DNA from: a virus
Lineage: Duplodnaviria; Caudoviricetes
IMG/VR virus record: IMGVR_UViG_3300025087_000034
Strand: one strand, 5' to 3'
Length of the DNA stretch: 64,000 bases
The notes beneath the pieces were generated by a model, which ran no database searches, was not told where the DNA came from, and worked only from the letters and a program-made list of their open reading frames with translations. Positions 792 through 60,371 of the stretch are shown here, piece by piece. Position 1 is the first letter of the stretch; each line of letters opens with the position of its first letter. The position numbers and the translations under genes were made by a program.

Positions 792-2090
792 GTGCCTAAT
801 TTTTCTGACATAACTATAAGGCAATACTCTCCGGGGTCCGTTGGTGGGTACGTGGCAGATAGAGATTTTAATTGGAGTAGCGAGGGAGACTGTAGGGATT
901 CCTTATTGGGGGTTTCCACAGAGATAGGGGTGCAATTTTATTACGCTTATCAACATCCCCGCCCAATGTTTGTTAGTTTGCCCTATTCTGTGTCTGAAGA
1001 CTGGTCTGATAGTCCGTCGAATGCCCCATTTTTATCTGATTTAGAAAGGTACTCGTATGGCAGGTTTGGGCCTAATAGGTATGGGAAGTTAGATAATTAT
1101 CGGGGGGCGAGTGTAAGACAAAATTACTTTGGTATGGCGTCAGAATCGTTAATTACTGAATTAATAACTAGTAAAGATACTGTAATATATGATATTGATA
1201 CGGGTTTAACGAATGAAACCTTAGTTTATGAAACCGAGGTTCCGTTTAATTACACAACCTTAAACCAACGTAACTTATTATTAAATGCTTCCCCAGCACC
1301 GTTTTCTTATAAGAATCCTGTTGATACGGATGTTTATATACGAATGGGTAATTATGTTTATACTCTTAGTTCAGGAACTATCACGCTTTCTTTGGACGGG
1401 GAAAGTAAAACAGGATTAGAAATAACCCCTTATTTTGGTGGGTTAGGCGGTTATGACGTTACTTGGAGTAATGACCAGGAGTTTGGGTATAATTCAAGAG
1501 TAGCGGTTCATTGGACGGTTTATGACTCTTACGTTCCACCAAATAAAATAGATTTCGATTATTGGTTTATGACCGTACAGGACTATTTAGGTCCTAGGTT
1601 TTTTTCTTTTTCTCCGCAGGATGGGGATATTGGTGTAGGTGTTGATACCTGCATTTCCTTTGTTGTTAGAGATTATGAATTAGGTATAAATATAAGTAGT
1701 CTTGAACTATATGTAAATAATGTTTTTATACCTATTAGTAGTATGAGTATAAGTGAAACAAGTTCTGGTGATGGTTATAGTATTTCTTTTTGCCCGCCGG
1801 AAGAATTTTTATATGGTGACACTATACCAGTATCAATATATGTAGAGGATAATTCAGAAGAAAAGAACTACTCTTTTTATGTGTATTCTTTTACTACAGA
1901 GGAAAGCTTGGCTCCTAATGTAATATCGCAGGATCCAAGGCCTTGTATTGGGTATGTTCCTGTTGACTATGATGTTGAGGTTGACGTAGTTGACGGAGGT
2001 GGCGGTATAGACGGTGAATCAATTGTACTAATAATAGATAGCAAGCCTGCTGTATTTAGAAAAGAGCCTATAATATATAGAGAGGATTAG
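792..2090 (+). CDS. Putative virion protein with Ig-like repeats
   Basis: 432 aa with GTG start. The C-terminal half has the pattern PQDGDIGVGVDTCISFVVRDYELGINISSLELYVNN...YSISFCP..EFLYGDTIPVSIYVED, which recurs in 7847..10360. Confidence 0.55.
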   Translation: MPNFSDITIRQYSPGSVGGYVADRDFNWSSEGDCRDSLLGVSTEIGVQFYYAYQHPRPMFVSLPYSVSEDWSDSPSNAPFLSDLERYSYGRFGPNRYGKLDNYRGASVRQNYFGMASESLITELITSKDTVIYDIDTGLTNETLVYETEVPFNYTTLNQRNLLLNASPAPFSYKNPVDTDVYIRMGNYVYTLSSGTITLSLDGESKTGLEITPYFGGLGGYDVTWSNDQEFGYNSRVAVHWTVYDSYVPPNKIDFDYWFMTVQDYLGPRFFSFSPQDGDIGVGVDTCISFVVRDYELGINISSLELYVNNVFIPISSMSISETSSGDGYSISFCPPEEFLYGDTIPVSIYVEDNSEEKNYSFYVYSFTTEESLAPNVISQDPRPCIGYVPVDYDVEVDVVDGGGGIDGESIVLIIDSKPAVFRKEPIIYRED

Positions 2091-2094
2091 TTGA

Positions 2095-5000
2095 ATGCCT
2101 AATACAGTACCTGGAAAACTTACTAAGCAAGGACCCATAGCAACACTAGAGGGTACAGTGGGTTTTACCGATGGTGACAAATTTATGTTTAACGGCAGCC
2201 AGTTTGTGCATTTTGTTTCTCAGGCTCCTACTGCTATAGAGGCTTCTGCTAATAAAGTACAAATACTTTATGATGGTCAGGTATATTCTAAGTTGTCATA
2301 TTCTAATTTTAAAAACAGCTCAAATGTTTTTAGGTTTTTAGATGGTGAGCCTATGTATACAGGAGTTTATATTGGTACTCCTGGTGCTTATGACCATGTT
2401 ATTATAGGGTATTCTTCTCCTATCACAACCAATCAAATTAGGTTTTGGTCTGCGAACTATATACCGAAGGATTTTATACGTGTAGATTATAGCCATGACG
2501 GGGATTATTTTTTTAATGTTCCAACAAGTGTGGGTGATGTTTCCTTTGAATTTGATGACTCTATAAGACTTTATTCTACAGAGGCTTCTCCTAGGGGCCA
2601 GTATGTTTATACTGTAGAGTTGAACGCAGATTACACAGCTAGTTATTGGCGTATTAGGTCTTTTATATTCGCTACCAATACAGCTAGGGTAGCAGACGTA
2701 AATGGTAAGACGGTTACACTGACCACGGTGTCAGGGCTCCCTGCTAGTTCTGATTTATATGAAGACGGTGGTTTATATTATTATGTTGGTAGTATAGGGA
2801 CTTCTTTGCAGACTAAAACTTTCCGGTCTTCTTCTTTACCGCCGATTAGTGGAGATGATAGGTTTATTACTTATAGTGCTACAAATATTACGTTGGATCC
2901 CAATTGTACTACTTTAACATTGAATAATGTTAGACTGGACAATTGTGTGGGAACTATTCGCAGAGGTTCTACCATTAAGGGCACGTGTTCTTTGATGTCT
3001 TTTCCTACTGAATATTACATAGCTGAATTAGCAGAGGATGTGGTTGTTTCTTCTAATCCAGATTATGTGGATCTTGTTTTTGATATCACCTATTCTTCTG
3101 TCCCTGGTTATGTTGTTGGGTGTCCAAATGTTCGCCTTAAATCTATAATAGGTAATTCTGGCAATATAGGATTTACGTTCTCTTACAGTGCTGAGTTGGG
3201 GTTGGTTTTATCTTATAAACCTATGTCTTCTGTCTTGTATGGTTCTTTAGGTGCTTCTTCTTTAGTGGGAATGAACATAGGGAGTTTTGGTGCTTCTGAT
3301 GATCTTGAAGCAGGAAGTTCCTTTGTTTATAGTTATGATTGTGAACTGACCCAGGTTCAGATAGTAAGTGGAGACAATAGCCAGCTTAGGTACTGGGAGT
3401 CTGATGGAAGTAAGTCAGTTACAAATTTATTGGAAGTAGATAATGTTTATGATCTTTCCTACGATGTTTCTGATGAGGTTTATTATGCTATAAGATTTAA
3501 TGCCTTAGGTGGGTTTGGTAGTCCTAGTTTGACCGATGATTTTTCTGGAAATTTTGGTAGCTCTTTTGATGCTTCTAAATGGGGGGAGCTTGGGACCGGT
3601 TTCTATAGGGACCCTGTAGCGGGGTGTGCCGTTTTTAATACTTCTTCTGGGGTTGTTAGTGCGGGGGGTCTTATAAGCACGGCTTATATAACGGGTAATT
3701 TTGATGCTTCTTTATATAACGAAGTAGCGACCTTGTCGGGTTCCGGTTTTTATGGTTTTTCGTTAATAGATAAAGATAGTAATAATATGTATGGCGGTGT
3801 ATTTTTAGCTAGTAATTGGGGGGCAGGGTTCAGTGGGTCTGTTGTCGGTGTGGGTGTTAGTGCGTTAGTAAACGTTGTTAGTTCCTATGTTAATTTTAGT
3901 AGTCTTAGCATTGATCCCTATGTGTTAGTAGAAGGAGACCATAAACATACTTTAGAGTATAGCTCTTCCTTGTGGTATTATACTAGGGAAAGCTTAACTC
4001 CGTCAGGTGTTTTATGGGATGTTTCTGATGTTAATGTTGGCTCTGGTCCAGGTGTGTTGTTGGACGGCATGAGCGTGTCCTTGGAAACGTCAGCTATGCC
4101 TCCGGATGGTAGCCACATTAGTTTTATTACGCATAAGAGCACGGCCTCTGGGTTGAGTAGTTCTACGGTTATGTTGTCTAGTAGCTATGACAGTCTATTG
4201 GGGCAGATTATTTTTAGTTTTGATGATGGGTTCGTAAGCTCTGTTCTGGTTTCAGAGATATACGGGAAGAATTTTAAAATAGGTATTTTTGGAAGTAATA
4301 GCAACTTTACTACTGTTAGTTCTACTCTATTTGAGTCTTCTGGGAGTGTTATATGGACCATACCTTGTTTTGAGGTTGTTGCTATTAATGCTGAGGGTAG
4401 TGTTACAGATGTTCCTGATGTTACTTCTGGGCGAGGTTTAGCAATATCTGCCTTGGATCTTGTGCAAGACCCTGTGGCCTCTTTTGGTGACTATTATAAT
4501 AAGGTGTCCATAGCAACAAACGGCTTAAGAAAAGACTCTGGTGGGGCATTGTTTCTAAGGATTAATTCAGATATTTATAGGTATGAGAAATCAGATCTCC
4601 CAATAATATTACCAGAGGAAGGGTCTACAGCTTCTGTTGTTGTCTCTGGTACTTTGCCATCTATCGAACTACGACATTTTAGTTATGACGACTATGTTAA
4701 TGGTGGTCTTAGTTATGGGTATGAGGATAGTCGTGGTGTTTTTATCACGACTGTTTCTTCCTCGTCTTTATTGGAAACTGGGTATGAGGCGGAGTTAGAT
4801 TTATTGGCCTGCTCTGTTCCTTTAGCTAGGGATCCTGTAGACTATTCTGTCTTATATACACTGGTAGGGAATAGTGTATATGTATTTAATTCAGATGATA
4901 CGTCTGTTGCTTTTTGTAATGTGATATCTAGTGAACCTGTGTTGCCGGCCAATTCAAACTATAGCTCGCTTATTACAGCGCAGGTTACAAACTTGTATGG

Positions 5001-7846: not shown

Positions 7847-10360
7847 ATGCGCTGGAAAGAGGGTGGAATAAACTATGCCTCTGGTAGTTTTAGTATTCCC
7901 GGGAGTAGCGTTCGGGTGTGTGCCTATGATAATGGCACACAGGTGTGTGATAAAGGACACAAAATAACAACACCAGGACAGTGTTATTCTCAAAGCATAG
8001 GAACTATAATAAGTACAGACCCTACGTTTCAGCCTACTTACCCTATATGTTTGGTAGATTATATGGGTCTTATTAATAGTTCGGGTTTTATATTTAATAG
8101 ACAGTATGGTATTTCTAGCACTTTTAATATAAGTACTTTAGATGTTGTTTTGTCTGCCTATAGCTTGGTGTTGTCTTCATTATATACAGAGAAAGAAGAG
8201 TATTTAGTTGTAAAAAGTATATATAAGTTGTTTGATTCTTTAGGTATTAGGGTTTGGTCAGATAGTATAACAGACAGTTATTCAGCCTATTTATCTGATT
8301 ATTATATGGTTGGTACTTTTAAGCTTTTATTGTTGAATAGTGGCTACATTCTCAGAGCTATAAATGCCTTTTCTGAGTTGTACCAGTATGATGTGTATGG
8401 TAGTGTTTCCTTACTTATGCCCTATTATTTTTTCCCTAAGATTACTAGGCAGGTAAATTTAGTAGTAATAGATGATATTACTGGTAGTTTTTCTGAGGTT
8501 GAGTCTTTATTTAAGTTGAGTGTAGAAAATTCTTCCGGCGGGGAAAATGAAAATCCTACAGATATATGTGTAGGAGACTTAACAAAACCATCTCTAGAAA
8601 ACATTCTACCTATACCAGGTTCTGTACTAAGACCAAATACTTCCTCTATATCATTTACTATAATAGATGCTATAGGGGGTGTTGATAGGTCTTCATTATA
8701 CATAACTATAAGTGGAAGTATAACAGCCCAAGCAGGTGGTAGTTCTATTATTGAGGCGGGTGTTATTCAAACTCCCCTGTATGCTTTTTTGGACGGGGAT
8801 GAGAATAGTTATGAATTTACCTATAACCCACCCTTTTTGTGGGCTGATAATGAAACAGTTTCTATAGCAGCTCATGGTTCTGATAAACTGCCTTTAGACG
8901 CAGAAGATGAAGAATTTATATGTGGTGGTCTTTCTACGAATAGCTTTGATGAGGCTTGGTCTTTTAATGTTGCTGGTATAAAGGAACTTACTTGTTCTAT
9001 AGTTGGGTTGGCGGATTCAGAACCTCCGTACATTGATTCTATATATCCTGTTCCTTTTTATGCTTATGCAAGATATGACGATGATATAACTTTTAACATA
9101 AAAGATGACCATGCCGGAGTTGATTTAAGTACTCTTTATGTCTATATAAATAATATTCCTGTTATTAGTGCTGGTGTGATTAATTCTGGTAATGTTTTTT
9201 TGGCCGGCGAAAAAAATTCATATCAATTTACATGGTCTAATACAGTAGGATTTATATATGGTGATAGAGTAGAAGTACATATAGTAGTTTCAGACTTATA
9301 TGCTGTTTTACCAAATATGTTAGACACAACTTATTATTTTGATGTAGTTGATGATTCTTCTCTGCAGTTCTTAAATTTTTTGCCGGCGGTAGGAATAACA
9401 CCTGACCTAGAAAATGTAAATATTGAAATAGATATTATAGATTCTCTTTACAATATTGATCAAAACAACTTATATATAAGTATGAACCAAGAAGTTGTAG
9501 ATAGTACCAAGACAAATATACAAGGTAATAGAAATTTAACTACTACATATTCTGGTTTAACAGCAATATCAGGTACTTGGATACATGATGCAGAAGTACT
9601 AGGCAGTATAATTACAAATACAACAGTTTCTGGTTCTTATATTATAGGAGGTAGTATAGAATATGGAAGTTCCATTTCTGGTTTTATGGGCTCTTTTCCT
9701 GCTCCTTTCGACTTAACTCCTTCCGGTATGATTATTTCCGCTGATTTATATGAAGGAATTGTAGTTTCGGGGACACTGGAAACTGTTCTTGTTAGTGGCA
9801 CTAACTGGGATGGCAAATATGAGAATTCAACTATTACTGATGTTAGTTTATCTGGGTTTTATTGTAGCAGCGTTTCTTCTTATAATACGATAATAAGTGG
9901 TACTATTGGCTACCATTTAGAGTATCACCCAGTAAATGACTTTGCTTATGATAGACCAATAGATATACTTATACATGCAGAAAATTTAAATTCCATTTCA
10001 CCGGTTGTTCGTGAAAGGATTTATAGGTTGTTTTATGGTTATAATGTAAAGACATTTAATACTAAGTTCAATAATAATGATAGAATAGTTGTTTATCTAG
10101 AAGCTTTAAATACATCAAATTTTTCGGCGGCGCTAAAAAATTCATATTACTTCAACACGAAAGAAAAAAGTATTTCTAATATATATGCTTCTATAAATAT
10201 AGTAGAACCATGGTTAAATATAACAGCCGATATACAACCACAAGCACCCGTACACAGGTACGGAGAAACAATAACTGTAGTACTATACGCACAAGACGTA
10301 CAAGGTAATGTATTGGGGCCGTATACCTTTTCATATACGATAGAAGATGCCCCAGAATAA
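7847..10360 (+). CDS. Putative virion protein with three Ig-like repeats
   Basis: 837 aa. Repeated units ISFTIIDAIGGVDRSSLYITI, ITFNIKDDHAGVDLSTLYVYIN and IEIDIIDSLYNIDQNNLYISMN. Confidence 0.55.
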   Translation: MRWKEGGINYASGSFSIPGSSVRVCAYDNGTQVCDKGHKITTPGQCYSQSIGTIISTDPTFQPTYPICLVDYMGLINSSGFIFNRQYGISSTFNISTLDVVLSAYSLVLSSLYTEKEEYLVVKSIYKLFDSLGIRVWSDSITDSYSAYLSDYYMVGTFKLLLLNSGYILRAINAFSELYQYDVYGSVSLLMPYYFFPKITRQVNLVVIDDITGSFSEVESLFKLSVENSSGGENENPTDICVGDLTKPSLENILPIPGSVLRPNTSSISFTIIDAIGGVDRSSLYITISGSITAQAGGSSIIEAGVIQTPLYAFLDGDENSYEFTYNPPFLWADNETVSIAAHGSDKLPLDAEDEEFICGGLSTNSFDEAWSFNVAGIKELTCSIVGLADSEPPYIDSIYPVPFYAYARYDDDITFNIKDDHAGVDLSTLYVYINNIPVISAGVINSGNVFLAGEKNSYQFTWSNTVGFIYGDRVEVHIVVSDLYAVLPNMLDTTYYFDVVDDSSLQFLNFLPAVGITPDLENVNIEIDIIDSLYNIDQNNLYISMNQEVVDSTKTNIQGNRNLTTTYSGLTAISGTWIHDAEVLGSIITNTTVSGSYIIGGSIEYGSSISGFMGSFPAPFDLTPSGMIISADLYEGIVVSGTLETVLVSGTNWDGKYENSTITDVSLSGFYCSSVSSYNTIISGTIGYHLEYHPVNDFAYDRPIDILIHAENLNSISPVVRERIYRLFYGYNVKTFNTKFNNNDRIVVYLEALNTSNFSAALKNSYYFNTKEKSISNIYASINIVEPWLNITADIQPQAPVHRYGETITVVLYAQDVQGNVLGPYTFSYTIEDAPE

Positions 10361-11988: not shown

Positions 11989-12094
11989 AATTATATTATG
12001 TTTCTTTTTTGATTTACAAATCATATGCTTCTTATTATATATAGGGTAAGAGTCGCTTGGGCTCATGACATTTATAGATAATAGGAGGCACAAG

Positions 12095-13231
12095 ATGTCA
12101 AATCTATGTGAGTGTGGCTGTGGAACAGAGGTACCAGGTGGAAGGTTTGTACATGGGCACAACCGTAGGGGTAAGGCTAGTTTTACTTCTAACGGGCGCT
12201 GGTCTATGAAATATGATTGTTGTAGAGAGTGTGGTACCACAGAGTTAAAACATACTAGAGACGGGTATTGTCGCAATTGTTATAGAAGAAAGGCTCGTTC
12301 TGGAGAGATAGTTATAAAGAGGGACTTAACAGGGGGTAAGTGGTCTAAAAAATATGATTGCTGTACTGAGTGTGGTACTACGGAGGTTAGATACAAGTCT
12401 AAGGGACGTTGTGAGCATTGTGTTGCTAAAAAACAGGTGAGGGATAGGGGGAAACGGAATCGTAATTTTGGAGGGTGGTCTTGGTATTATGATAGGTGTG
12501 TTAAATGTGGTACTAGTGAGATTCCACATGGCTCGAGGGGTTTGTGTATGCAATGTTATTCAGAATTGGGGCGTGAGGATAAAAAGGGGGACTTGGCCCG
12601 TTGTCCAGTTTGTGGGGTTGCCACTGTTAGGTTGGAGCAGCATTTGGCCATGAAGTCAAAGAGAAGTCTCGAACATAGGGGCCTATATAATAAACTTTAT
12701 GATAGTGCTGTTGAGGCTTTTAGTAGTAGTCAAACGTCGAGGGAGGTTGCACTTTCCTTTGGTGTTAGTAAGAGAAGAATATTGGATATATGGCACGAAA
12801 ATTTTACAAAAGAAGAGGTTGTTGCTAGGGGAGAGAAAATACGCATAAGTAAGATTTCGGGAGAAAACCATTATCTTTTTGGTACTCTTATTAGCTTTCC
12901 TTATTCTAGTATTATAAGGTTTGAGGATATTAAGGGGAAAGTTGTTTTTTTGCGGTCTTCTTGGGAAGAAAAATATGCTCGGTATTTAGATTCCCAGAGG
13001 GTTGAGTGGGAGTATGAAACATACAAATTTAAATATTATGACTCTGAGGGTTCCCCTCATTACTATTTTCCTGATTTTTATTTGCCAGGTACAGGGGAGT
13101 TTGTTGAGGTTAAGGGTTATATGACAGATAAAGATCAGTACAAGATGGACGAGTGCAAACGTATACACGGTATTAATATAAGGCTTATGCAAAAAGAAGA
13201 TTTTAGAGTTATAGGCATAGTGGTATATTAG
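12095..13231 (+). CDS. Putative homing-type endonuclease: multiple Cys/His zinc modules plus C-terminal PD-(D/E)XK (TnsA-N-like) nuclease
   Basis: ATG at 12095 follows AGGAGG. Contains CECGCG...RFVHGH, three WSxxYDxCxxCGTxE...GxCxxC repeats, CPVCG..LEQH, an HTH-like segment, and LRSSWEEKYARYLD...EWEYE...YFPDFYLP...FVEVKG. Confidence 0.75.
   Translation: MSNLCECGCGTEVPGGRFVHGHNRRGKASFTSNGRWSMKYDCCRECGTTELKHTRDGYCRNCYRRKARSGEIVIKRDLTGGKWSKKYDCCTECGTTEVRYKSKGRCEHCVAKKQVRDRGKRNRNFGGWSWYYDRCVKCGTSEIPHGSRGLCMQCYSELGREDKKGDLARCPVCGVATVRLEQHLAMKSKRSLEHRGLYNKLYDSAVEAFSSSQTSREVALSFGVSKRRILDIWHENFTKEEVVARGEKIRISKISGENHYLFGTLISFPYSSIIRFEDIKGKVVFLRSSWEEKYARYLDSQRVEWEYETYKFKYYDSEGSPHYYFPDFYLPGTGEFVEVKGYMTDKDQYKMDECKRIHGINIRLMQKEDFRVIGIVVY
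12197..12550 (+). repeat. Three in-frame Cys-rich repeats with 141- and 135-nt spacing
   Basis: TGGTCT at 12200, 12341 and 12476 begins WSMKYDCCRECGTTE, WSKKYDCCTECGTTE and WSWYYDRCVKCGTSE. Confidence 0.85.
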
Positions 13232-13434
13232 TTTATGTTTTTGTATGTGTGATTTAATGCTTAAACCTAAATTATTAACCCAGAGTTGCATTTTAATTTT
13301 CGGTCTTGTTTTTTTCTTTGGGGACTATATAGGACATTACCTCTATTGTAGTATTATTTTAAGGGTTTTTTCTTTCGCCGAAAAATTTTGTGGGCGATAA
13401 AAAATCAAAATTAACTTAGGATAGGAAAAAACAA

Positions 13435-43949: not shown

Positions 43950-43955
43950 TTTTTC

Positions 43956-43984: not shown

Positions 43985-44013
43985 TAATACGTGATGGTAA
44001 AAAGGAGATTTTA

Positions 44014-45155: not shown

Positions 45156-45731
45156 ATGTCTAAACAGTCAACAATTTTTTCGGGCGCCGAAAAAAATATT
45201 ACTGAACAAGATTGTATTGACATATTAAAAGAAAAAAACTATATAATAATAAAGCTAGACGATTTAGACACAACACAGGTTAAAACAGCTAAGGAGCTAG
45301 TTTCTTTTTTCTATGCTACTTTATCTTTTTATAATAGGTCAAGATTATTACATTATGGGAAGACAACAAAAAAAGATTTAAAGTTAGCTTCATCTTTTAT
45401 AAAGATAAGACAAGAAGAAGCCGGTCTTAGTAAGGGTAGGGCTGTACAAGAATGTGCCATGATAGTAAGGTGTGTAATAGCAAATGAACCAAAGTTTTCT
45501 CTTTCTGAGCCGTTACATAATATGGAATGTTTTGGACAGGAAAATATGCGGTGGGTTACTGATAAAGCAATAAGCATAATAAACGGGGAGAATAAGAAGA
45601 TAGAAGAGGAAAAATATAATAAGTATATAGAAGATCTTTATGGTGCGCAAGAAAAAATAGCCATTGAAAATATAGATAATAAACATGTAGAAAATCTTAA
45701 GGATATTTTAGGAGATTTAGAAAATGGGTAG
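45156..45731 (+). CDS. Hypothetical protein
   Basis: 191 aa helical ORF, coupled to recA. Confidence 0.6.
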   Translation: MSKQSTIFSGAEKNITEQDCIDILKEKNYIIIKLDDLDTTQVKTAKELVSFFYATLSFYNRSRLLHYGKTTKKDLKLASSFIKIRQEEAGLSKGRAVQECAMIVRCVIANEPKFSLSEPLHNMECFGQENMRWVTDKAISIINGENKKIEEEKYNKYIEDLYGAQEKIAIENIDNKHVENLKDILGDLENG

Positions 45732-48988: not shown

Positions 48989-49399
48989 ATGTCAACATTA
49001 GTTACTGTTCTTATTGCTCTAGGGATTGTTTTAGTGGTTGGTTTTCTTGTTTTTGTGATTTATAAGTGGGGAGCTAAAAATCCCGTTGTAGCCGGTGGTG
49101 TTTTAGGACTATTATCAGCGGTATCCTTCTATTTGAGGGGCATGTTTAAGGACGACCCAGATAAGTTGGATGCTCATGATTTTATGGTGTTATTCGATTT
49201 ACTTTCTAAGGTGGGGTTAGAGGCACTTAAGCTTAAGAAGGAGGGAAAGCCCTTTGTTGAAGCTAAGGAACTTATTACAGAAAAAGTAAAGGAGGTTGTT
49301 GAGACCGTTCCTGCGTTTAGAAACAAAGTACCAGATGAAACAGTAGACAGTATTGCCAAAGTAATTTTTGATGTTCTTGGTTATGTGCCAGGAGTTTAA
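48989..49399 (+). CDS. Predicted two-TM membrane protein
   Basis: Hydrophobic segments LVTVLIALGIVLVVGFLVFVIY and VVAGGVLGLLSAVSFYL. Confidence 0.55.
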   Translation: MSTLVTVLIALGIVLVVGFLVFVIYKWGAKNPVVAGGVLGLLSAVSFYLRGMFKDDPDKLDAHDFMVLFDLLSKVGLEALKLKKEGKPFVEAKELITEKVKEVVETVPAFRNKVPDETVDSIAKVIFDVLGYVPGV

Positions 49400-49411
49400 T
49401 CTCTTATTTTC

Positions 49412-49425
49412 GCGGCGAAAGCCGC
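49412..49425 (+). other. GC hairpin with GAAA tetraloop just upstream of the primase RBS
   Basis: GCGGC-GAAA-GCCGC, preceded by TTTTC and not followed by a U-tract. Confidence 0.55.
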
Positions 49426-49437
49426 ACAAGAGGTAAA

Positions 49438-51322: not shown

Positions 51323-52159
51323 GTGGTTGTTAAATCAGGAATATATTGCATTTGTAATTTAATTAATGGGAAAATATACATTGGGTCAACTATAGATTTT
51401 GAGGCGAGATGGCACGAGCACAAAAGGCAACTAAATAAAGGTAGTCATCACTCTTTACATCTACAGAACGCTTGGAACAAATATGGTGAGGGTAACTTCT
51501 ATTTTGGTGTTTTGGAGGACGTAATAGATAAGTGTGAACTTATTACCGTGGAACAGCGTTGGATAGATGAGCTACATCCTGAATATAATATTTGTCCTAC
51601 AGCGGGTAATACTCGTGGGCGGGAAGTTTTAGAGAAAACTAGGCAGAAGATATCTAAGTCTAATAAGGGAAAGCTTTTAGGGGAGAAAAACCCAATGTAT
51701 GGTAGGACAGGTGAGAAACACCCAATGTACGGTTGCACAGGTGAGAAAAACCCAATGTACGGTCGTACAGGTGAAAGTAGCCCAAATTTTGGTAAACCAC
51801 GTCCAGAAGAAACCAAACGGAGGATATCTAAGTCTAATAAGGGAAAGCTTTTAGGGGAGAATCACCCGCTGTTTGGCCGTACAGGAAAGGATAGCCCTAA
51901 TTATGGTAAACATCGTACAGAAGAATACAAGCGTAAGCGGTCTGAGTCCCTAATGGGTAAGAATAACCCTATGTGGGGACGCACAGGGGTGAAGAGCCCA
52001 TGCTATAAACGGGCTAAATGTTGGTCTTACAATGGAAAATCCCAACCGTTGTCCGACTGGTCCAGAGAATATAATATAGACCAAACAACACTAGCTTCTC
52101 GTGTAAAAAAGTTGGGTTGGTCCCTTGAGAGGGCCCTCCTAACACCGGTGAAAAAATGA
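51323..52159 (+). CDS. Free-standing GIY-YIG homing endonuclease with NUMOD3-type repeats
   Basis: [18 protein letters not shown]...RWHEHKRQL...EQRWID...EYNI. Has [10 protein letters not shown] repeats and a C-terminal HTH-like domain. Confidence 0.9.
51649..51861 (+). repeat. Exact 39-bp direct repeat plus 30-bp tandem units within the GIY-YIG gene
   Basis: GATATCTAAGTCTAATAAGGGAAAGCTTTTAGGGGAGAA at 51649-51687 and 51823-51861. 30-nt units start at 51680, 51710, 51740 and 51770. Confidence 0.9.
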
Positions 52160-52992
52160 CTTTTTATGATGTGTTAGGCGCGTCTAAAGAGGCCTCAGAA
52201 GATGAGATAAAAAAAGCCTATAGAAAGAAAGCTAAGGAAACCCATCCAGATATAAATAAGGATGACCCAGAAGCTGAAGAGAAGTTTAAGAAGGTTTCTG
52301 AGGCTTATGGGGTTTTAGGAGACTCTGAAAAACGACAACAGTATGATTTTTCATTAGAAAACCCTGGTTTTAATGGGGGACCTGGATTTAATTCCTGGAC
52401 TAGTACTAATTTTGATGATATTTTTGGTGCACATTTTGGATTTGGTGCTAGTGGTCCCAGACAAAGACCAAAACCAAATCCTAAGGTAGTAGCTCGTGGG
52501 AAGGATGTAAGAATTAAGTATGACACTACTCTTTACTCAGCAATATTTGGTGGAGAGTTTTCTGGTAGGTTAAAATTTGACTCTGGATGTCCAAATTGTG
52601 CGGGGTATGGCTATCTTAAGTATGATACCCCGTGCAGTACTTGTGGGGGCTCAGGCCAGCAGTTTATATCCCATGGTATGCTTCGTATGAGTCAGCCTTG
52701 CTCTTCTTGTAGAGGCCTTGGGTTGGCTCCTAGTGAACAGTGTCCTGAGTGTTCTGGTTCTGGTAAGTGTAGTAATGAGTTTGAATACTTTGTTACTATT
52801 CCAAGAGGGTTTGTATATTCCAATAATGAAAATGGTGGTGTTATTATAGTAGAAGGTAAGGGGGCACCAGGAATTAACGGCGGGGAAAAAGGAAATTTAA
52901 TAATAATAACAAATATTTTAACCCCAAAAATAAATTTAGAACAGATAACAGAAGAAGAAAAGGAAATACTCAAAAAGTATATAGATAATTAA
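52156..52992 (+). CDS. dnaJ: DnaJ (Hsp40) co-chaperone with shortened C-terminal domain
   Basis: J-domain with HPD, G/F-rich linker and four CxxCxGxG motifs. Confidence 0.93.
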
Positions 52993-52996
52993 AAAA

Positions 52997-53473
52997 ATGT
53001 CAAGAATATTAGGATTAGATGTATCTTCATCCAGTACCGGTTGGGCACTTACAATAAATAATAGATTTTATTTAAAAGAAGAATGTTATTATGGTATAAT
53101 AAGTCCAGAAAAGAATTTAACTCTTGCCGAAAAACTAGAATTTTTTAGGGTTAAATTAATAGAAATTTTAGATAAAACTAAACCAGATATAGTAATAATA
53201 GAAGACGTGTTTTTACAGCGTAATGTTAGTACTCTTAAACTATTATCTAGATTTTCTGGTGTGGCTATAGAAGCAGTAAAATCTAATTCAAAAATAGAAC
53301 CACAACTTCAAACAGTAAAAAAAATACGTTCCAAAGTAGGAACACAAGACAAAAAATCAACATATACATTTGTTGTAGAAAGGTTCAAGCTTCCGTGGAA
53401 AAAAGAAGACTTTAATAAGCGTAATGATATAACTGACGCACTGGCTCTGTGCTTGTTTGTAACTACAAAATAG
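52997..53473 (+). CDS. ruvC: RuvC-type Holliday junction resolvase
   Basis: ILGLDVSSSSTGWA, VIIEDVF, NDITDALAL. Confidence 0.85.
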   Translation: MSRILGLDVSSSSTGWALTINNRFYLKEECYYGIISPEKNLTLAEKLEFFRVKLIEILDKTKPDIVIIEDVFLQRNVSTLKLLSRFSGVAIEAVKSNSKIEPQLQTVKKIRSKVGTQDKKSTYTFVVERFKLPWKKEDFNKRNDITDALALCLFVTTK

Positions 53474-53484
53474 GAGTTTAAAAA

Positions 53485-54663
53485 ATGCAAAATCGATCTG
53501 TGTCTGCTACCGCCATGAAATTGTTTCTCCAATGTTTACAAAAGTTTTATTTTAAGTATTATTCAGATAAAGCTCCCCTAGTCTCTAGGGATTCTATGGC
53601 TTTTGGGTCAGCAGTTCACGAAGCCCTGGAACAGATGTATAAAAGACTAGGAAACCAAGGAAGGCTTCCTAATCAGGATGACTACGATTACGTAATAGAT
53701 GTTTTTATGAAATCGGCAGTTCAAAATCACCTTTCGGACCAATCTCTCTATGATGAAGGTCGGTTGATGTTGAAGAGCCGGTTGGACAAGTTTGATCCTA
53801 GCGAAAAAGTAATTGGTTTGGAGGTAATCTTTGGTAGACCTTATGAGAATCCTGAGGTACCTGTCTCTACCAAAAAAGGTACCCCACTTTTGGGAGCCAT
53901 AGATAAACTTATAGAATTAGATAAAGATACTATAGTAATATTGGATTATAAAACTAGTCGTATGGCATTTACCCAAGAGGAAGCCGATCATGACGAGCAG
54001 CTTTCCCTGTATGATTTGGTGGTTAGTATCCTGTACCCCCAATACAAAAATAGGATACTTGTTCTAGATTATTTACGATTAGAGCCTGTTATTACACATA
54101 GAACCTCGGTACAGAGAGTTTCGTTTGAAAGTCAGTTAGATTGCATCTATGAGGAAATTAAACAGCTATCATTTGAGAAGGTTAAGCCTTCTATTAATGA
54201 GTTCTGTGGGTGGTGTGAGTATAAGAATTATTGTGCTGCTTTCCAGAAGGTAGTATCTGACCCCGACTTATTAATAAAGCCTTATGGTGTGTGCTCTGAT
54301 CAGGAGCTTATAGAAGAATGGGAAAACTTCGGCAAGATAAAACGAATCATAGACTCTCACGATAGGGATTTAAAAATGCATATTTCAAAGACTGCCATGG
54401 ATAGAGATTCTTCCGGTATTTCTGGTGACGAAAAAGAACTGTACAGAGTCCAAAACAGTCGTGTGTCATACAATACGCAGGCTGTAGCTAAAGTTATCCC
54501 GCTAGAAGACTGTTTGCAGTTCTTTTCCGTAAATACTAAGGGTTTAGAGCGGTTTTTAGTGGATCACCCAGAGTATTCAGAGGAAGTCTTAAATAGTGCC
54601 GAAGTTTCTTTTAACAATTCCTTTTTTAAGTTGAGGGGAAAAAGGACTTCTTCGAGAAAGTAA
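53485..54663 (+). CDS. RecB/AddB/Cas4-like PD-(D/E)XK exonuclease with probable Fe-S cluster
   Basis: N-terminal Cys (FLQC), GAIDKL...ILDYKTS, QLSLY and CGWCEYKNYC. Confidence 0.85.
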   Translation: MQNRSVSATAMKLFLQCLQKFYFKYYSDKAPLVSRDSMAFGSAVHEALEQMYKRLGNQGRLPNQDDYDYVIDVFMKSAVQNHLSDQSLYDEGRLMLKSRLDKFDPSEKVIGLEVIFGRPYENPEVPVSTKKGTPLLGAIDKLIELDKDTIVILDYKTSRMAFTQEEADHDEQLSLYDLVVSILYPQYKNRILVLDYLRLEPVITHRTSVQRVSFESQLDCIYEEIKQLSFEKVKPSINEFCGWCEYKNYCAAFQKVVSDPDLLIKPYGVCSDQELIEEWENFGKIKRIIDSHDRDLKMHISKTAMDRDSSGISGDEKELYRVQNSRVSYNTQAVAKVIPLEDCLQFFSVNTKGLERFLVDHPEYSEEVLNSAEVSFNNSFFKLRGKRTSSRK

Positions 54664-54665
54664 AA

Positions 54666-54860
54666 ATGGTTGAAAAGAAAGAAAAAAAATATCAAATATA
54701 TAAAGAAGGTGTGTTTGTCGGACTTCAACTTCTAGATGGGACAAAGGTTTTTGGTATAATTGATACTTTTGACAATTACTTCTTATATATAGACGATGGA
54801 ATAACTATCATTGATGTACCACGGGACATAGTGAGAAGAATTTTTGCGGTTGTAAAGTAA
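54666..54860 (+). CDS. Hfq/Sm-like small protein
   Basis: VGLQLLDGTKVFGIIDTFDNYFLYI matches the Sm1 pattern (cf. Hfq [25 protein letters not shown]). An Sm2-like IDVPRDIVRRI follows. Confidence 0.65.
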   Translation: MVEKKEKKYQIYKEGVFVGLQLLDGTKVFGIIDTFDNYFLYIDDGITIIDVPRDIVRRIFAVVK

Positions 54861-55606
54861 TGATTACAAAATCTGGTATATACTGTATTTGTAATTTAGT
54901 TAATGGAAAAATATACATAGGACAGACGGCTGATTTTAAGCTAAGGTGGAGAAGCCATATTAAAAGGTTTAATAGAGGTTCTAGGAGTGCAAACCCACAC
55001 CTTCTTAGCGCGTGGAGAAAGTATGGCCCAGAAGCTTTTGTTTTTGAGGTTATAGAATATGTTCCTAAAGATAAAGAACTCCTTAAAGAACGGGAACAGT
55101 ATTGGATGGACTATTTGAATGTGACCGACTCGGAGGTGGGATATAATATATCTCCCACGTCCGGGTCATCTTTGGGAGTTAAGTATACAGAGGAACAAAA
55201 GCAGAAAATGTCTGGTGAAAACAGCGTTGGGTATCAACATGCTAAGTGCTGGGAATACAATGGAAAATCCCTGCCTTTGTCTGTTTGGGCGAAAGAGTAC
55301 AATATGAGCCAAACAACCCTTGCCTCCCGAGTAAAAGAGATGGGCTGGCCGCTTGAAAGGGCCTTAGCCACGACGGTAAAAAGTGACATGTTTGGTGAAA
55401 ATAACAATATGTTTGGTCACAAAGGTGAAAAAAGTCCTGGTTATAAACATGCTAAGCGCTATGACTATGATGGAAAATTACAGACTCTGTCCGATTGGGC
55501 TAAAGAGTATGGTATAAATCAAACTACATTGAGTTCTAGGATAAAGAAATTAGGGATGTCTATTGAAAGAGCCCTAACAACCCCTGTAAAGTCTAGAAAG
55601 AAATAA
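54860..55606 (+). CDS. Free-standing GIY-YIG homing endonuclease with two C-terminal HTH-like repeats
   Basis: [18 protein letters not shown]...EREQYWMD...GYNI, then two copies of YxGKxxxLSxWAKEYxxxQTTLxSRxKxxGxxxERAL. Confidence 0.9.
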   Translation: MITKSGIYCICNLVNGKIYIGQTADFKLRWRSHIKRFNRGSRSANPHLLSAWRKYGPEAFVFEVIEYVPKDKELLKEREQYWMDYLNVTDSEVGYNISPTSGSSLGVKYTEEQKQKMSGENSVGYQHAKCWEYNGKSLPLSVWAKEYNMSQTTLASRVKEMGWPLERALATTVKSDMFGENNNMFGHKGEKSPGYKHAKRYDYDGKLQTLSDWAKEYGINQTTLSSRIKKLGMSIERALTTPVKSRKK

Positions 55607-55656
55607 TCTTTTGGTTGTTGTTTTTTGTATACAATATTTTCATAAAAAGGAGATTT

Positions 55657-56946
55657 ATGGTGGAACAAAAGAAAGATAAAATAAAGATGCTAGTATACGC
55701 TGACTCTGTGACCGCATCTACAGGTTTTGGGGTCGTTATGAAAAATATATTGTTGCCTTTGCATAACACAGGCAAGTATGAAATAACCATGCTTGGCATA
55801 AATTACTGGGGAACCCCACACCAGGCCCCGTTTGAAATCTGGCCTGTGGGTGTGGAGTCCATGTTTAGTGGGGACAAGGATCCGTATGGACGGTTGTTTG
55901 TCCAAAGAAAAATAGCAGAATCTGAATTTGATATTTTATTTATGTTGCAAGATTCATTTATCCTTGAGTTTGTAAAGGATTTTCTTCCAAAGTTAAGGCA
56001 GAAGGGAAAAAAGTTTACTTCCGTTATATATTTTCCTATAGATGGAATCCCTAAGAAAAGTTGGATTGAAGCTATGAATGTAGCTGACATTCCCGTCACG
56101 TATACTGAATTTGCGAAAAATGAGTGTATAAAGATTATTCCGTCTATGGAGAAAAGACTTAGAATAATTCCTCATGGTGCTAATATGGCAGATTTTTATC
56201 CATTATCTTATAGGGAAAACTATGAGTTTAAGAAGGCTTATTATAGACATTTGGCTGACCGATTTATAGTTTTAAACGTAAACCGCAATCAGCAGAGAAA
56301 AGACATATTTCGCACAATGCTTGCGTTTAGAGAATTTCATAGGAAGTATCCTGATACACTTTTGAATCTGCACCTTGCGGTAAAGGATCAGGGTGGTGAT
56401 ATTCTGGCAGTAGCGGATTCTCTGGGTTTAGTGCCAAATGTCGATTTTATTTTTCCGTATAATTTTTCTCCTTCTACTGGTTTTCCTGTAGACGTGCTAA
56501 ATAGGATTTATAATTCTGCTGACGTAGTGATTAGCACATCTAAAGGAGAGGGCTGGGGGTTGGCTCAGGTAGAAGCGATGGCCTGCAAAACTTTAGTAAT
56601 TTCCCCAAATAATACGGCTTGTACGGAAATAGTAGGTGAAGACAGGGGATTATTAGTAAAAAGTGGTCATGATATTGACCATCTTGAAATTATGATGTAT
56701 GACAACGAAGTTCTTCGTCCTGTGGTTAATGTCCAAGACTTAGTAGATAAGTTAGAATTAGCTTATAATGATGAAGTATTAAGAATGAAGCTAGCAGAGA
56801 ATGGATATAACTGGGTTAGAAACACACTTGTGTGGGAAAATAATATAGTTCCCTTGTGGGAGGTCATATTTGAAGAGGCTATGGAGATGAAGAATAAGGG
56901 GCATGTTGTTGAAAGTGATGGTTTCGGTGAGGTAGAGGAGGTTTAG
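55657..56946 (+). CDS. Glycosyltransferase, GT4 (GT-B) family
   Basis: ATG at 55657 after AGGAG. TGFG N-terminus, LNVNRNQQRK and ISTSKGEGWGLAQVEAMAC. Confidence 0.9.
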   Translation: MVEQKKDKIKMLVYADSVTASTGFGVVMKNILLPLHNTGKYEITMLGINYWGTPHQAPFEIWPVGVESMFSGDKDPYGRLFVQRKIAESEFDILFMLQDSFILEFVKDFLPKLRQKGKKFTSVIYFPIDGIPKKSWIEAMNVADIPVTYTEFAKNECIKIIPSMEKRLRIIPHGANMADFYPLSYRENYEFKKAYYRHLADRFIVLNVNRNQQRKDIFRTMLAFREFHRKYPDTLLNLHLAVKDQGGDILAVADSLGLVPNVDFIFPYNFSPSTGFPVDVLNRIYNSADVVISTSKGEGWGLAQVEAMACKTLVISPNNTACTEIVGEDRGLLVKSGHDIDHLEIMMYDNEVLRPVVNVQDLVDKLELAYNDEVLRMKLAENGYNWVRNTLVWENNIVPLWEVIFEEAMEMKNKGHVVESDGFGEVEEV

Positions 56947-56948
56947 TT

Positions 56949-58070
56949 ATGCGAGGTATAAAGGTCATAGGCCCATATAATGATGCTTCTGGTTATGCCC
57001 AGGCATTTAGAGACAACGTTTTGTCTTTATATAAACTAGGTTTTGATATTACTATACAACCTAGGAATTTTGAACCAAACCCCCCACCGGTTTCAAATAA
57101 AGAACACGCAGCTATATTGGATAAACTTGTTGGAAGAAATATTAAGTATGATATAACCTTCCAACAGCTCACCCCAGACTTGTGGCGTGACCATGTGGAG
57201 CCTGACAAGTATAATATAGGTTTTATGGCTTGGGAGACTTCTTTGCTCCCGCCAAAATTTGTTCATTCTTGTTCTTCTGTACAAGAAATTTGGGTTCCCA
57301 GTGATTATAATGTAAGTGTACTAAGGTCTTGTGGGGTTGAAGTTCCAATAACAAAAATACCACATAGTATAGACCCAAATTTGTTTAGTTCAATAGACTG
57401 TGGAGAGTATAGCCTAAAAGGTTTGTCAAATAACACATATAAGTTTTATAGTATTTTTCAATGGATCGAACGAAAAAATCCTATGGGTCTTGTACGTTCA
57501 TATTTTAATGCTTTTGATGACAGCGATGATGTTGTTCTTATATTAAAGACGTATCGTACTGGTATGGGACGTGATAAAGATTTTATTAGAGAAAAGATAG
57601 TGGAAATCAAAAGGGATATGAACATAGGGGCATATCCTAGGGTAGTGCTTATTGGGGACATGCTTAGTAAAAATCAGGTGTTAGGATTACATAAGTATTG
57701 TGATAGTTATGTATGTTTGCACCGGGGTGAGGGGTTCGGCCTTCCTCTGTTCGAGGCCGGGCTAGTCGGTAACCCTGTAATCGGTACTGGTTATGGTGGG
57801 AACACAGAGTTCATGAAAGAAGACAACAGCTATTTAGTAGAGTATCAAATGACGTATGTTTCTGGTATGAGTTCATTTAATCCTTGGTACTTAGGAAGCG
57901 GACAATGGGCAGAACCTAATTTGATTGACGCAAGTGAGAAAATGAATTATGTATTTAATAATAGAATAGAAGCTAGAGAGACAGGAAGGAGACTTCAAGA
58001 TTATATAGCTAGTAATTTTTCTACAGAAGCAGTTTCTAAGTTAATGTTTGATAGGTTATCAAAACTATAA
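56949..58070 (+). CDS. Glycosyltransferase, GT4 (GT-B) family
   Basis: SGYAQA, WVPSDYN, WIERKNP and HRGEGFGLPLFEAGLVGNPVIGT. Confidence 0.9.
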   Translation: MRGIKVIGPYNDASGYAQAFRDNVLSLYKLGFDITIQPRNFEPNPPPVSNKEHAAILDKLVGRNIKYDITFQQLTPDLWRDHVEPDKYNIGFMAWETSLLPPKFVHSCSSVQEIWVPSDYNVSVLRSCGVEVPITKIPHSIDPNLFSSIDCGEYSLKGLSNNTYKFYSIFQWIERKNPMGLVRSYFNAFDDSDDVVLILKTYRTGMGRDKDFIREKIVEIKRDMNIGAYPRVVLIGDMLSKNQVLGLHKYCDSYVCLHRGEGFGLPLFEAGLVGNPVIGTGYGGNTEFMKEDNSYLVEYQMTYVSGMSSFNPWYLGSGQWAEPNLIDASEKMNYVFNNRIEARETGRRLQDYIASNFSTEAVSKLMFDRLSKL

Positions 58071-58086
58071 CTTTTTGGGGGTTTTT

Positions 58087-58920
58087 ATGTTGCTGCGCGA
58101 AAAAATTATCTCATTGATTTACAGGGAAATTCTTGGTAGGGATGTAGACGATATTGGTTTGGGTATATATATGAGGTCTAGCGTTCCTATAGAGGTTGTA
58201 TATAGTGAGGTTTATAATTCCGATGAAGCAATGGAGTATAGGGATAGGATGGAGGAAGAGAGGTTTTTAAAGCAGGCGAATATTAAGTTGCCATTAACCT
58301 TAGCAATGTTTGTTAAGGACGTAGAAGACAGTGTAGAAATGGCTATAAGAAGTGTTTTACCTATAGTTAGTGAGGTTGTTATTACAGATACTGGTTCCTC
58401 TGATAGAACTATAGAGGTGTGTAAGGACCTGGGGGCTCGTGTCTATAGTGTGGGGTTTTCTGACTTTGGTAGCATAAGAACGGTGTCTGGTCATTTAAGT
58501 AGGCAGCCCTGGGTTCTTGGTTTGGACGCCGACGAGGTTGTTCTTTCTGAAGACCTTCCAAAATTTAAGGATTTAATAGAGAATAGTAATGTAGATGCCT
58601 GGGGTTTGCCAAGAAAACGATGGGCCGATTTGGAAATGCTAGTACAGGTAGAGCCGGAGGCATACCCGGATTTTCAATATAGGCTATTTCGTAATGATTT
58701 AAATATTATTTATGTTAGACGAATACACGAAATAATTAAAGGAACTGATAAAAAAGTGGAGGCGCTTGACGGTCCTTGTATACAGCACTTTCAAGATGTT
58801 TTTAAGTTCGGAGAAAAATTAAAATCAAGAAATTTACTTTATAAGAATTTGTATGATAAAGATATTTGTGATGGTGTGGGGCACGAGGGTTTAGCCGTAC
58901 AACCCATTGACGAGGTGTGA
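58087..58920 (+). CDS. Glycosyltransferase, GT2 family (SunS/flagellin-GT-like), with N-terminal DUF4214-like helical domain
   Basis: AMFVKD...VVITDTGSSDRT...DFGSIR...WVLGLDADE. N-terminal LIYREILGRDVDDIGL...VYNSDE. Confidence 0.85.
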   Translation: MLLREKIISLIYREILGRDVDDIGLGIYMRSSVPIEVVYSEVYNSDEAMEYRDRMEEERFLKQANIKLPLTLAMFVKDVEDSVEMAIRSVLPIVSEVVITDTGSSDRTIEVCKDLGARVYSVGFSDFGSIRTVSGHLSRQPWVLGLDADEVVLSEDLPKFKDLIENSNVDAWGLPRKRWADLEMLVQVEPEAYPDFQYRLFRNDLNIIYVRRIHEIIKGTDKKVEALDGPCIQHFQDVFKFGEKLKSRNLLYKNLYDKDICDGVGHEGLAVQPIDEV

Positions 58921-59729
58921 TTTTGTATATTAGTGTTCCAATAATTCTACGTAACATCGTAAGGCTTAATTACCCTGTGGAAATGGTAGTTGGTAGTGTT
59001 GCGGGCTTGGCTAATGAGGTTGTTTTGTGCGTCGACCCTTCCTCGGAGGACTCGACTGTTAAGTTGTGTGAGGAGATGTCTTTAAGGTCGAAGCTCGGTG
59101 GAATAAAGACAGATATACGTGTAGTATATAGTAAATGGGATTTAAAAAACATAACTGATACAGGATATGAATTTGCTAAACAAACAAATATAGCAATAGA
59201 TTACTGTATTGGGGACTGGGTGCTTCTTTTACAGGCCGATGAAGCAATTCACGAACAAGATTTTGATAAGATACTTGACGCAATTGATTATGCAAACGAT
59301 AATAATATAGATGGGTATGAAATGACACGTCTGTATTTTTATGGTAGTATGGATGTCATACGAGACGATTGGACAGTTCCTATTATAAGATTATTTAAGA
59401 AGGGGTCTAGAAAATCGTGTGGGGACGCTATGAATACCTTAGGTAAGGGAAGGGTTGAAAGACTTAATGTTCCAATATATCATTATTCACGTATAGGGGA
59501 TCCTGAAATTATATCTAAACGTATATTATCTTTGGATAAATTTTTTCACCGCGCGGAAAAATTAAAGGACGAAAAAGAACTTAAACCATACTCATTTGAC
59601 ACATATAACTTTGATTGTCAACATAAAGACAATATAGACATAGGAAGAAAAAAAGTAGAACAATCATTTAGTACATTTACAGGCACACACCCAAAAATAT
59701 TCGTTGGGTATACTGGGGAGGGTTTTTAG
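58917..59729 (+). CDS. Glycosyltransferase, GT2 family
   Basis: NEVVLCVD..SEDST...AKQTNIAIDYCIGDWVLLLQADEAIHE...IYHY. Confidence 0.85.
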   Translation: MILYISVPIILRNIVRLNYPVEMVVGSVAGLANEVVLCVDPSSEDSTVKLCEEMSLRSKLGGIKTDIRVVYSKWDLKNITDTGYEFAKQTNIAIDYCIGDWVLLLQADEAIHEQDFDKILDAIDYANDNNIDGYEMTRLYFYGSMDVIRDDWTVPIIRLFKKGSRKSCGDAMNTLGKGRVERLNVPIYHYSRIGDPEIISKRILSLDKFFHRAEKLKDEKELKPYSFDTYNFDCQHKDNIDIGRKKVEQSFSTFTGTHPKIFVGYTGEGF

Positions 59730-59732
59730 TTC

Positions 59733-60371
59733 ATGATATTAGAAATGTCTTCCTGGGCCAAACTAAATATAAAAGAACCTGCCCCTTTATATGAAGTTCC
59801 AGGAATTAATTCTATAGAACCTATTGATGTATATAATTTTCGTTATTCTCGTCCGTATACTGAATTAAGTAAACCAGAACTAGAGGACCCACACAGGCAG
59901 TATTTGGATGTTTTGTGTAATTTGGACAGGGGAAGCTCTCTTTTAATTTTTGGCTCTGGTCACAGTTTTAATATGAACATCTTTTATGATTATGGGAGGT
60001 TTTCTAGGCTTGTAGCTGTAGATTTTTCCGCGGCGGCAAAAATAGGTCTTTACAAAGAAATAGAATTTTACGATAATAATATACTAGAAGGTGACTTACC
60101 TGTTGTTTGTGACTATGTTTTTTCAGCTCATACTATAGAGCATTTTTATAAGAAAGAATTATTTGATATTGTTTTACCTAGATTGTTTAAGGCTGCTAGA
60201 AGGGGTGTAGTGATATTAGTACCGTACGGTACTAATTGGGCCGGGGAACCTTACCATAAGTGTCAGTTTTATGAAAATGATGAATTTGCATCGTTGTTTG
60301 ATAAATACAGGATTGTAAGAAAGGGTTCAGAAATTATATTTTTTAAAGGGGAAACTGACCATGGATTTTAG
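59733..60371 (+). CDS. Class I SAM-dependent methyltransferase-like protein
   Basis: LLIFGSGHS, LVAVDFS, DYVFSAHTIEH, VILVP. Confidence 0.7.
   Translation: MILEMSSWAKLNIKEPAPLYEVPGINSIEPIDVYNFRYSRPYTELSKPELEDPHRQYLDVLCNLDRGSSLLIFGSGHSFNMNIFYDYGRFSRLVAVDFSAAAKIGLYKEIEFYDNNILEGDLPVVCDYVFSAHTIEHFYKKELFDIVLPRLFKAARRGVVILVPYGTNWAGEPYHKCQFYENDEFASLFDKYRIVRKGSEIIFFKGETDHGF

Follow-up and report, generated by a model that had tools for sequence, protein, structure and literature searches.

A short element made up of a run of T, roughly one helical turn of G and C only, and a run of A recurs far more often than chance allows in a 64,000-nt stretch of a tailed-phage genome (Caudoviricetes; IMG/VR record IMGVR_UViG_3300025087_000034), hereafter the window. 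The element is real, strongly non-random, written at the level of the DNA and of unusual design, being two-fold symmetric in composition and not in sequence. It occurs at a density of about one per 6 kb, nearly always within genes. A preliminary description, made from the letters of the window, had drawn attention to the motif; here we report its abundance against controls, its anatomy, its origin and conservation among relatives, and the explanations that may account for it.

Enrichment and anatomy of the element

As first described, the window is AT-rich and CpG-poor (G+C, 38.4%; CpG observed/expected, 0.62). G exceeds C across the whole strand, and all 42 large open reading frames (ORFs) lie tightly packed on the + strand. 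The encoded DnaB helicase recurs without change on groundwater and soil metagenome contigs as long as 258 kb, and the window is therefore a piece of a huge uncultivated phage. Identical contigs were followed outward from the window, which lengthened the sequence to 110 kb of a genome of at least 258 kb; extended motif counts use 102 kb.

The over-representation suspected in the preliminary description was borne out by every control. The strict pattern, T{4,}[GC]{6,12}N{0,4}A{3,}, matched nine times in the window, compared to 1.52 ± 0.68 (maximum 4) in 500 within-gene synonymous-codon shuffles, 0.26 in 500 dinucleotide shuffles, and 0.28, 0.39 and 0.42 in Markov simulations of order 1, 3 and 5, respectively. 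Across 102 kb of the same phage there were 15 strict matches, against 1.9 ± 0.9 expected (maximum 5; 300 shuffles). Enrichment was 6- to 30-fold across codon-, dinucleotide- and Markov-preserving controls and was confined to one run order, as the reverse arrangement (A-run, core, T-run) gave 0–1 match with 0.2–0.7 expected. One strict match (49407–49420) is a separate object, a hairpin upstream of the primase gene, which survives synonymous shuffling unchanged because it lies outside genes.

The ten full sites originally listed all read exactly as described. These and two further candidates are:

1787–1805, T5-GCCCGCCGG-AAGAA, in ORF 792–2090; the weakest A arm
9195–9216, T7-GGCCGGCG-A7, in ORF 7847–10360
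10120–10140, T5-CGGCGGCGCT-A6, in ORF 7847–10360
20892–20911, T5-CGCGCGACAC-A5, in ORF 19765–24795
26810–26829, T8-CCGGCC-A6, in ORF 24795–29927 (Kelch-repeat protein)
33035–33053, T6-GGCGGCGCCG-A3, in ORF 32142–33272
45175–45196, T6-CGGGCGCCG-A7, 19 nt into ORF 45156–45731
48204–48224, T4-GGCCGCGCGGCC-A5, over the DnaB helicase Walker A peptide ILAARPKT
59541–59561, T6-CACCGCGCGG-A5, in ORF 58917–59729 of the glycosyltransferase island
60023–60042, T5-CCGCGGCGGC-A5, in ORF 59733–60371
13366–13385, T6-CTTTCGCCG-A5, intergenic; a doubtful relaxed site with three T in its core, a possible member only
9376–9395, T6-GCCGGCGG followed by TAGGAATAA; a T-arm-only site

Isolated half-sites had also been put forward as members. 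Their raw counts were high (T4+S6–12, 13 vs 4.8 expected; S6–12A4+, 9 vs 1.7), but the excess consisted of the full sites, and once these were removed T-arm-only and A-arm-only classes alike fell to expectation. With complete sites alone enriched, both arms are therefore needed together. The T-arm-only site at 9376, whose right arm falls on a conserved VGIT peptide, may be a constrained member. The two-armed design was also apparent in the spacers: among T5+…A5+ pairs 4–14 bp apart, the spacer was at least 80% G/C in 8/19, compared to 0/12 for A..T, 2/15 for T..T and 0/9 for A..A pairs. The T..A spacers fell into two classes, either G/C-rich or not.

Anatomy was measured on 17 clean sites in the 102 kb, with flanks viewed to ±18 bp. 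Elements were 20.9 ± 1.8 bp long, with a core of 9–10 bp in 12/17 sites, and the mean lengths of the T and A arms were equal. G and C were exactly balanced in the cores (77 each), in contrast to other G/C runs on this strand, which are 66% G (P = 6e-5), and the outer flanks mirrored one another, A-rich on the left and T-rich on the right. This symmetry did not extend to the bases themselves. No core sequence was shared among the 17 sites, which does not fit the sequence-specific, parS- or Chi-like site first proposed, and only 32/80 mirrored pairs matched about the centre of the element, compared to 36.6 under the null. Palindromes internal to the cores were marginally above shuffles (P = 0.046). 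The exception was site 48204, a perfect 20-bp palindrome and the only perfect one among the sites. The cores had also been thought specially rich in CpG; they held 38 CpG and 39 GpC dinucleotides, and resemble arbitrary G/C strings. As RNA, sites 48204, 33035 and 45175 folded at −11.0, −8.0 and −7.5 kcal/mol, respectively, and most others at 0 to −4.4 kcal/mol.

The codon phase of the arms differed from site to site. Sites were not significantly biased toward gene ends (6 vs 4.5 expected, P = 0.28), nor toward gene starts, and were not close to genes for homing endonucleases, TnpB or IscB; they were present in the structural block (~−3.4 kb to 51.3 kb), from which such genes are absent. A clean intergenic site at −10457, outside the window, together with the doubtful one at 13366, indicates that translation is not required. 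Self-BLAST revealed no internal protein repeat that would explain sites 9195 and 10120, which share an ORF. Avoidance of G/C palindromes was not detected (ratios, 0.95–1.07). At the sites, contigs from four sequencing runs were free of variants, joints and ends, although nicks do not register in contigs; contig breaks in these runs were limited to the repeated GIY-YIG and TnpB copies. The listed data sets that contain the phage were all DNA contigs, with no RNA set among them. Our literature search returned nothing relevant on such a motif in phages.

Origin of the sites and their conservation among relatives

The codons that make up the cores are the rarest in the genome, in agreement with the preliminary description: GCG accounts for 12% of alanine, GGC for 12% of glycine, CCG for 12% of proline, CGG and CGC for 5% and 4% of arginine, and TCG for 5% of serine codons. 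All-G/C codons also cluster (103 adjacent pairs vs 72 ± 8). The signal resides in the DNA and not in the protein, as had been argued, since synonymous shuffles destroy it and orthologues with an identical peptide are written in ordinary codons. Under constraint on the peptide, the differences are confined to the codons; AARP in the helicase Walker A motif is encoded by GCC GCG CGG CCA here, and by GCA GCC CGA CCA or GCC GCT AGG CCC in relatives. At freer stretches of peptide, residues have shifted toward the motif, and amino acids at weakly conserved positions have changed toward F/L…A/G/S…E/K. Thus YYCPPEP in orthologues corresponds to SFCPPEE at site 1787 (codons TAC TAC TGT CCT CCA GAG CCA vs TCT TTT TGC CCG CCG GAA GAA), which is read in frame as S-F-C-P-P-E-E-F, a correction to the preliminary description. 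Site 9195 encodes VFLAGEK where 13 orthologues have (A/I)(S/T)(I/L)(T/S)G(D/S).. (e.g. ISITGDK), with no indel, and site 10120 encodes F-S-A-A-L-K where orthologues have F-T-N-E/S-L/V (FTNEL to FSAALK). A partial version of site 20892, TTTTTCCCGCGATTCAAAA, occurs in the relative L094. Across eight aligned sites there were no indels relative to orthologues. On these alignments, the sites arise through rare codons and lineage-specific amino-acid replacement, and never through indels.

Conservation at the DNA level, which the preliminary description had proposed as a test, was found at two sites and was lacking at four. The relative L001 (74% amino-acid identity) retains site 48204, with 7/8 codons identical, rare ones included, compared to a background of 0.48; L002 and L003 lack the site. 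Site 59541 persists in L003, where it reads T6-CACCCCGCCG-A5 at 20710 in a protein of 57% identity; there, 8/8 codons for shared residues are identical (background, 0.45) and both changes in the core exchange G/C for G/C. Site 45175 was absent at the orthologous place in L002, L003 and L097, and sites 9195, 10120 and 1787 were missing from relatives.

Occurrence beyond this genome was similarly restricted. A relaxed pattern matched 7 times in the closest relatives (139 kb; 1.4 expected), mostly in L001 and L003, and 14 times in distant relatives (640 kb; 9.9 expected), and the strict pattern matched 6 times in all relatives pooled (3.3 expected). L001 and L003 thus count with this phage as motif-rich, and L002/L093 and L094 as motif-poor. 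Enrichment is therefore limited to this phage and its nearest relatives and is not general in related phages. Judged from these comparisons, the element is young, confined to one lineage and subject to turnover, and some of its sites bear signs of selection.

Genomic setting

The genes of the window include, all on the + strand:

Large proteins with Ig-like, Kelch and discoidin domains
Sliding clamp, RecA, DnaB, DnaG, SSB, DnaJ, RuvC and a PD-(D/E)XK nuclease
An island of glycosyltransferase and amino-sugar genes

Megablast against cultured phages gave no close relative, tblastn recovered distant helicases only, and a scan of IMG/VR with two window proteins found no relative. GTDB genomes searched with the helicase profile likewise held no relative, and hence no clue to the host. 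At gathering threshold, Rfam had zero matches in the window, and a promoter and terminator scan of 44–64 kb was near background and uninformative. A near-consensus sigma-70 promoter (TTGTCA, 17 nt, TATAAT) lies at 43950–44013, before the sliding-clamp gene, and suggests that host RNA polymerase is used and that the host has standard promoters.

The genome is unusually rich in selfish nucleases. A TnpB gene (61053–62186; OrfB_IS605 and Cas12f1-like TNB domains) has structured flanks (60916–62472 in the window) and a left end seemingly after TTAC; sequencing depth is about doubled and contigs break at it, and there are therefore several copies of the TnpB element. Two genes for RRXRR plus HNH proteins of 467–472 amino acids, the architecture of the RNA-guided nuclease IscB, occur in L096 (2588–4006 and 18319–19722), at ~65.8–67.2 and ~81.5–82.9 kb on the window scale, in regions of sugar and nucleotide metabolism. 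At least six paralogues of a CapR/treble-clef zinc-finger endonuclease (phrog_559, annotated as HNH endonuclease) were located in L095 (8906–15288), L096 (13702–14586) and L098 (20174–20651), with none or one in the same region of L093 and L094. The GIY-YIG endonuclease genes at 51323–52159 and 54860–55606 are alike enough for assemblies to join them (51609–55169, 51785–55232), and both are absent from L002 and L003. There are also two junction-resolving nucleases, namely a 388-amino-acid protein (12065–13231) with a C-terminal T7 endonuclease I domain and a RuvC homologue (52997–53473).

A strain variant, L085, is 99.9% identical up to 55194, after which unrelated genes replace the glycosyltransferase island. 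The island, which carries sites 59541 and 60023, is therefore accessory. Genes at 55615–63864 and in L091 (11038–17056) encode four glycosyltransferases, a DegT aminotransferase, a PglD-like acetyltransferase, a sugar dehydratase/epimerase, a B12 radical-SAM enzyme and methyltransferases. Together they look like a bacillosamine-type amino-sugar pathway, the target of which may be protein or DNA.

Other structured sequences were also seen. The hairpin before the primase gene (49399–49434; GCGGC-GAAA-GCCGC in a CTCTT/AAGAG stem; −14.7 kcal/mol, z −3.5) covers the ribosome-binding site, pairing with the Shine–Dalgarno sequence, and is a possible translational operator of primase. A perfect 22-bp palindrome, ATTAGTACCGTACGGTACTAAT, lies at 60215–60236, and perfect palindromes of 16–18 bp cluster in the replication module (44–51 kb) at 44418, 46399, 46838 and 50243. 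Palindromes with arms of at least 8 bp are about twice as frequent as expected. The word TATAAATA (at 9145, 10192, 33074, 1685 and elsewhere) occurs within 120 nt of 4/17 sites where 1.1 are expected (P ~0.02), a weak, post hoc association.

A proposed shape-read site, its alternatives and likeness to known signals

Our best guess, with a probability of about 0.35, is that the element is a composition- or shape-coded site in double-stranded DNA for a two-fold symmetric protein. It would be a selected duplex signal set by composition and geometry and not by base sequence: a T-run of ~5–6 bp, one helical turn (9–10 bp) of G/C only and an A-run of ~5–6 bp, a layout that renders it alike on both strands. 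Readout through groove or shape separates G/C from A/T pairs and is blind to their orientation, which fits both the cores without consensus and the parity of CpG and GpC. Since its recognition would discriminate G/C from A/T without regard to orientation, need both arms and keep a one-turn spacing, a symmetric factor would read the groove shape or stability of the duplex. The minor groove would be narrow at each of the two opposed A-tracts, the stiff G/C turn that separates them would present a wide groove, and the reader, a factor of this phage lineage, could be an architectural, clamp-loading or nicking protein. Sites would be placed wherever the protein tolerates F/L, then small residues, then E/K, which would explain their presence in unrelated genes and their quick turnover.

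Precedents exist both for A-tracts read by shape and for a symmetric G/C-content code. Homodimers that read intrinsically narrow minor grooves include MogR and the 434 repressor (PMC5946862), whose sites likewise contain A-tracts. These differ from the element in having short A/T-rich or mixed spacers and in lying in promoters, where the element has a full turn of G/C only and lies inside genes. The MogR site, TTTT-N5-AAAA, has the same run order as the element. DNA gyrase recognises a degenerate, symmetric G/C-content code by indirect readout, proposed to act via groove geometry (PMC6379681). The gyrase motif is 130 bp long with a 10.75-bp period and short A/T blocks, whereas the element is a single 21-bp unit with A/T blocks ~15 bp apart and a run order opposite to that of the gyrase consensus flanks. 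No topoisomerase gene was seen.

Several points weigh against the shape-coded site. Four of the six testable orthologous sites were unconserved in relatives at 45–74% amino-acid identity, and a persistent mutation or repair bias could therefore mimic weak selection. Neither a ParB-type nor any other obvious reader candidate was present among the recorded Pfam hits in the 110 kb. Among known dimeric DNA binders, a spacer restricted to G/C and yet free in sequence is unusual. Finally, the A-tract centres are ~15 bp (1.4 turns) apart and so lie on nearly opposite faces of the helix, which is awkward for a simple dimer bound to one face.

A thermodynamic signal for a DNA-translocating machine has a low but appreciable probability. 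A G/C turn between easily melted T and A tracts would form an energy well at which RNA polymerase could pause or a helicase stall, or could yield a short G/C-rich RNA–DNA hybrid, its A-run end trimmed by RNase H, as a replication primer. Composition alone would matter here, the core has the length of a transcription hybrid or primer, and, with genes packed tightly on one strand, every site is transcribed. T-rich non-template DNA may promote pausing in some bacteria, and RNase HII, DNA polymerase A, DnaB and DnaG are all phage-encoded. However, equal G and C and mirrored arms are needless for a one-directional process, and the lack of bias toward either end of genes is also unfavourable.

Somewhat less probable still is that the element is functionless and left behind by a mutation or repair bias peculiar to this lineage, for instance very-short-patch repair or biased gene conversion between nearby T and A runs. 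Quick turnover, restriction to one lineage, cores that resemble arbitrary G/C strings and amino-acid changes that are tolerated and not avoided would all be expected of such a process, in a genome crowded with nuclease and recombination genes. Its difficulty is with the sharp edges and fixed size of the element and with the retention of rare codons at two orthologous sites across deep divergence. Moreover, a G/C core in just 8/19 T..A pairs is a bimodal outcome and not general drift, and we know of no repair process with this footprint.

We consider it unlikely that the element is the site of a phage nuclease making programmed nicks or staggered cuts at both T-run/core junctions. Fixed nicks, as in phage T5 DNA, or cuts of the cohesive-end type would then feed recombination-dependent replication or provide entry for clamp loading. 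The two junctions are one turn apart on opposite strands, and the preferred cleavage context of RuvC is TTT followed by G or C; besides RuvC and the T7 endonuclease I domain, the phage has genes for numerous HNH and GIY-YIG nucleases and for a sliding clamp and RecA. Against this, the assembled contigs are unbroken and invariant across the sites, although nicks would be invisible in them, the sites are not near nuclease genes, and no observation ties the motif to a nuclease.

Pairing of the T-run with the A-run, either as a hairpin in single-stranded DNA or RNA or as a cruciform, is largely refuted and retains only a slight probability. By its make-up the element has complementary arms, three of the sites give good RNA folds, and in the first ten cores internal palindromes exceeded shuffles (P = 0.007). 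With 17 cores this excess became marginal and central symmetry was lacking, most folds were weak, and changes at conserved sites broke pairing with no compensation (G to A in L001; CCGCGCGG to CCCCGCCG in L003), so the cruciform option of the preliminary description is not upheld. More improbable again is a translational signal in which rare codons clustered between those for Phe and Lys slow the ribosome. This would account for the rarity of the core codons and the clustering of all-G/C codons, but not for the requirement for T and A runs in a given order, which is irrelevant to a codon effect, nor for the varying codon phase of the arms, the amino acids changed to create the runs or the occurrence of at least one site outside any gene.

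Other candidates were rejected. A mobile insert, either a G/C cluster or a palindromic element, does not agree with the absence of indels at the eight aligned sites or with the mutually unrelated cores. A bidirectional intrinsic terminator (A-run, G/C hairpin, T-run) has the same three blocks, but the element has them reversed, as the preliminary description had recognised, and is mostly without a stable hairpin; the T-run precedes the core on both strands, folds are mostly weak, and the terminator-type order is not enriched. An oriented genomic oligomer of the Chi or uptake-sequence type was dismissed given that no fixed word recurs, the two strands of the element look alike and G equals C in the cores. 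The word TATAAATA, taken as a T4-type late promoter tied to the sites, was not enriched over its sub-words (21 vs 17.7).

The element belongs to a known class of dispersed genomic signals, in a new form. Chi, DNA uptake sequences, FtsK-orienting sequences and the stoperators of mycobacteriophages are likewise dispersed in coding sequence, where they use tolerant coding positions and can alter protein sequence; they have a fixed sequence and a strand orientation, and the element has neither. ParB-family sites, too, often lie inside genes. Like the element, the sites of the ParB-CTPase family (KorB operator OB, TTTTAGCGGCTAAAA; Noc site, TATTTCCC-GGGAAATA; parS, TGTTTCAC-GTGAAACA) have a T-rich left arm, a G/C centre and an A-rich right arm, with multiple copies scattered over a replicon; dispersed Noc sites are documented (PMC7383237, PMC11790492, PMC4331003). 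Relative L001 even has the reading TTTTAGCCGC…. ParB-family sites, unlike the element, are true palindromes of 14–16 bp with a fixed shared sequence, and the element has a longer core with neither consensus nor central symmetry, so the likeness is one of form only. No ParB, KorB or Noc gene was found in the recorded Pfam hits or in protein scans of 110 kb of the at least 258-kb genome.

Known dispersed in-gene signals (Chi, uptake sequences, parS and Noc sites) all have a base-sequence consensus. Here the information seems to lie in composition, length and run polarity only, and yet it prevails over codon usage and over some amino acids. Should there be no reader, the element would mark a mutation or repair bias not described before. 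Tentatively, it may represent a genome-wide, two-fold symmetric G/C-versus-A/T code, read by a lineage-specific factor through DNA shape or stability and strong enough to alter proteins, including the codons of the helicase Walker A motif; that is, a dispersed cis-element without base consensus for genome organisation, replication priming or programmed nicking. If such a reader exists, nature would here offer a clear instance of recognition coded by shape or stability, and with it a handle on the organisation, replication or processing of an uncultivated phage genome of at least 258 kb.

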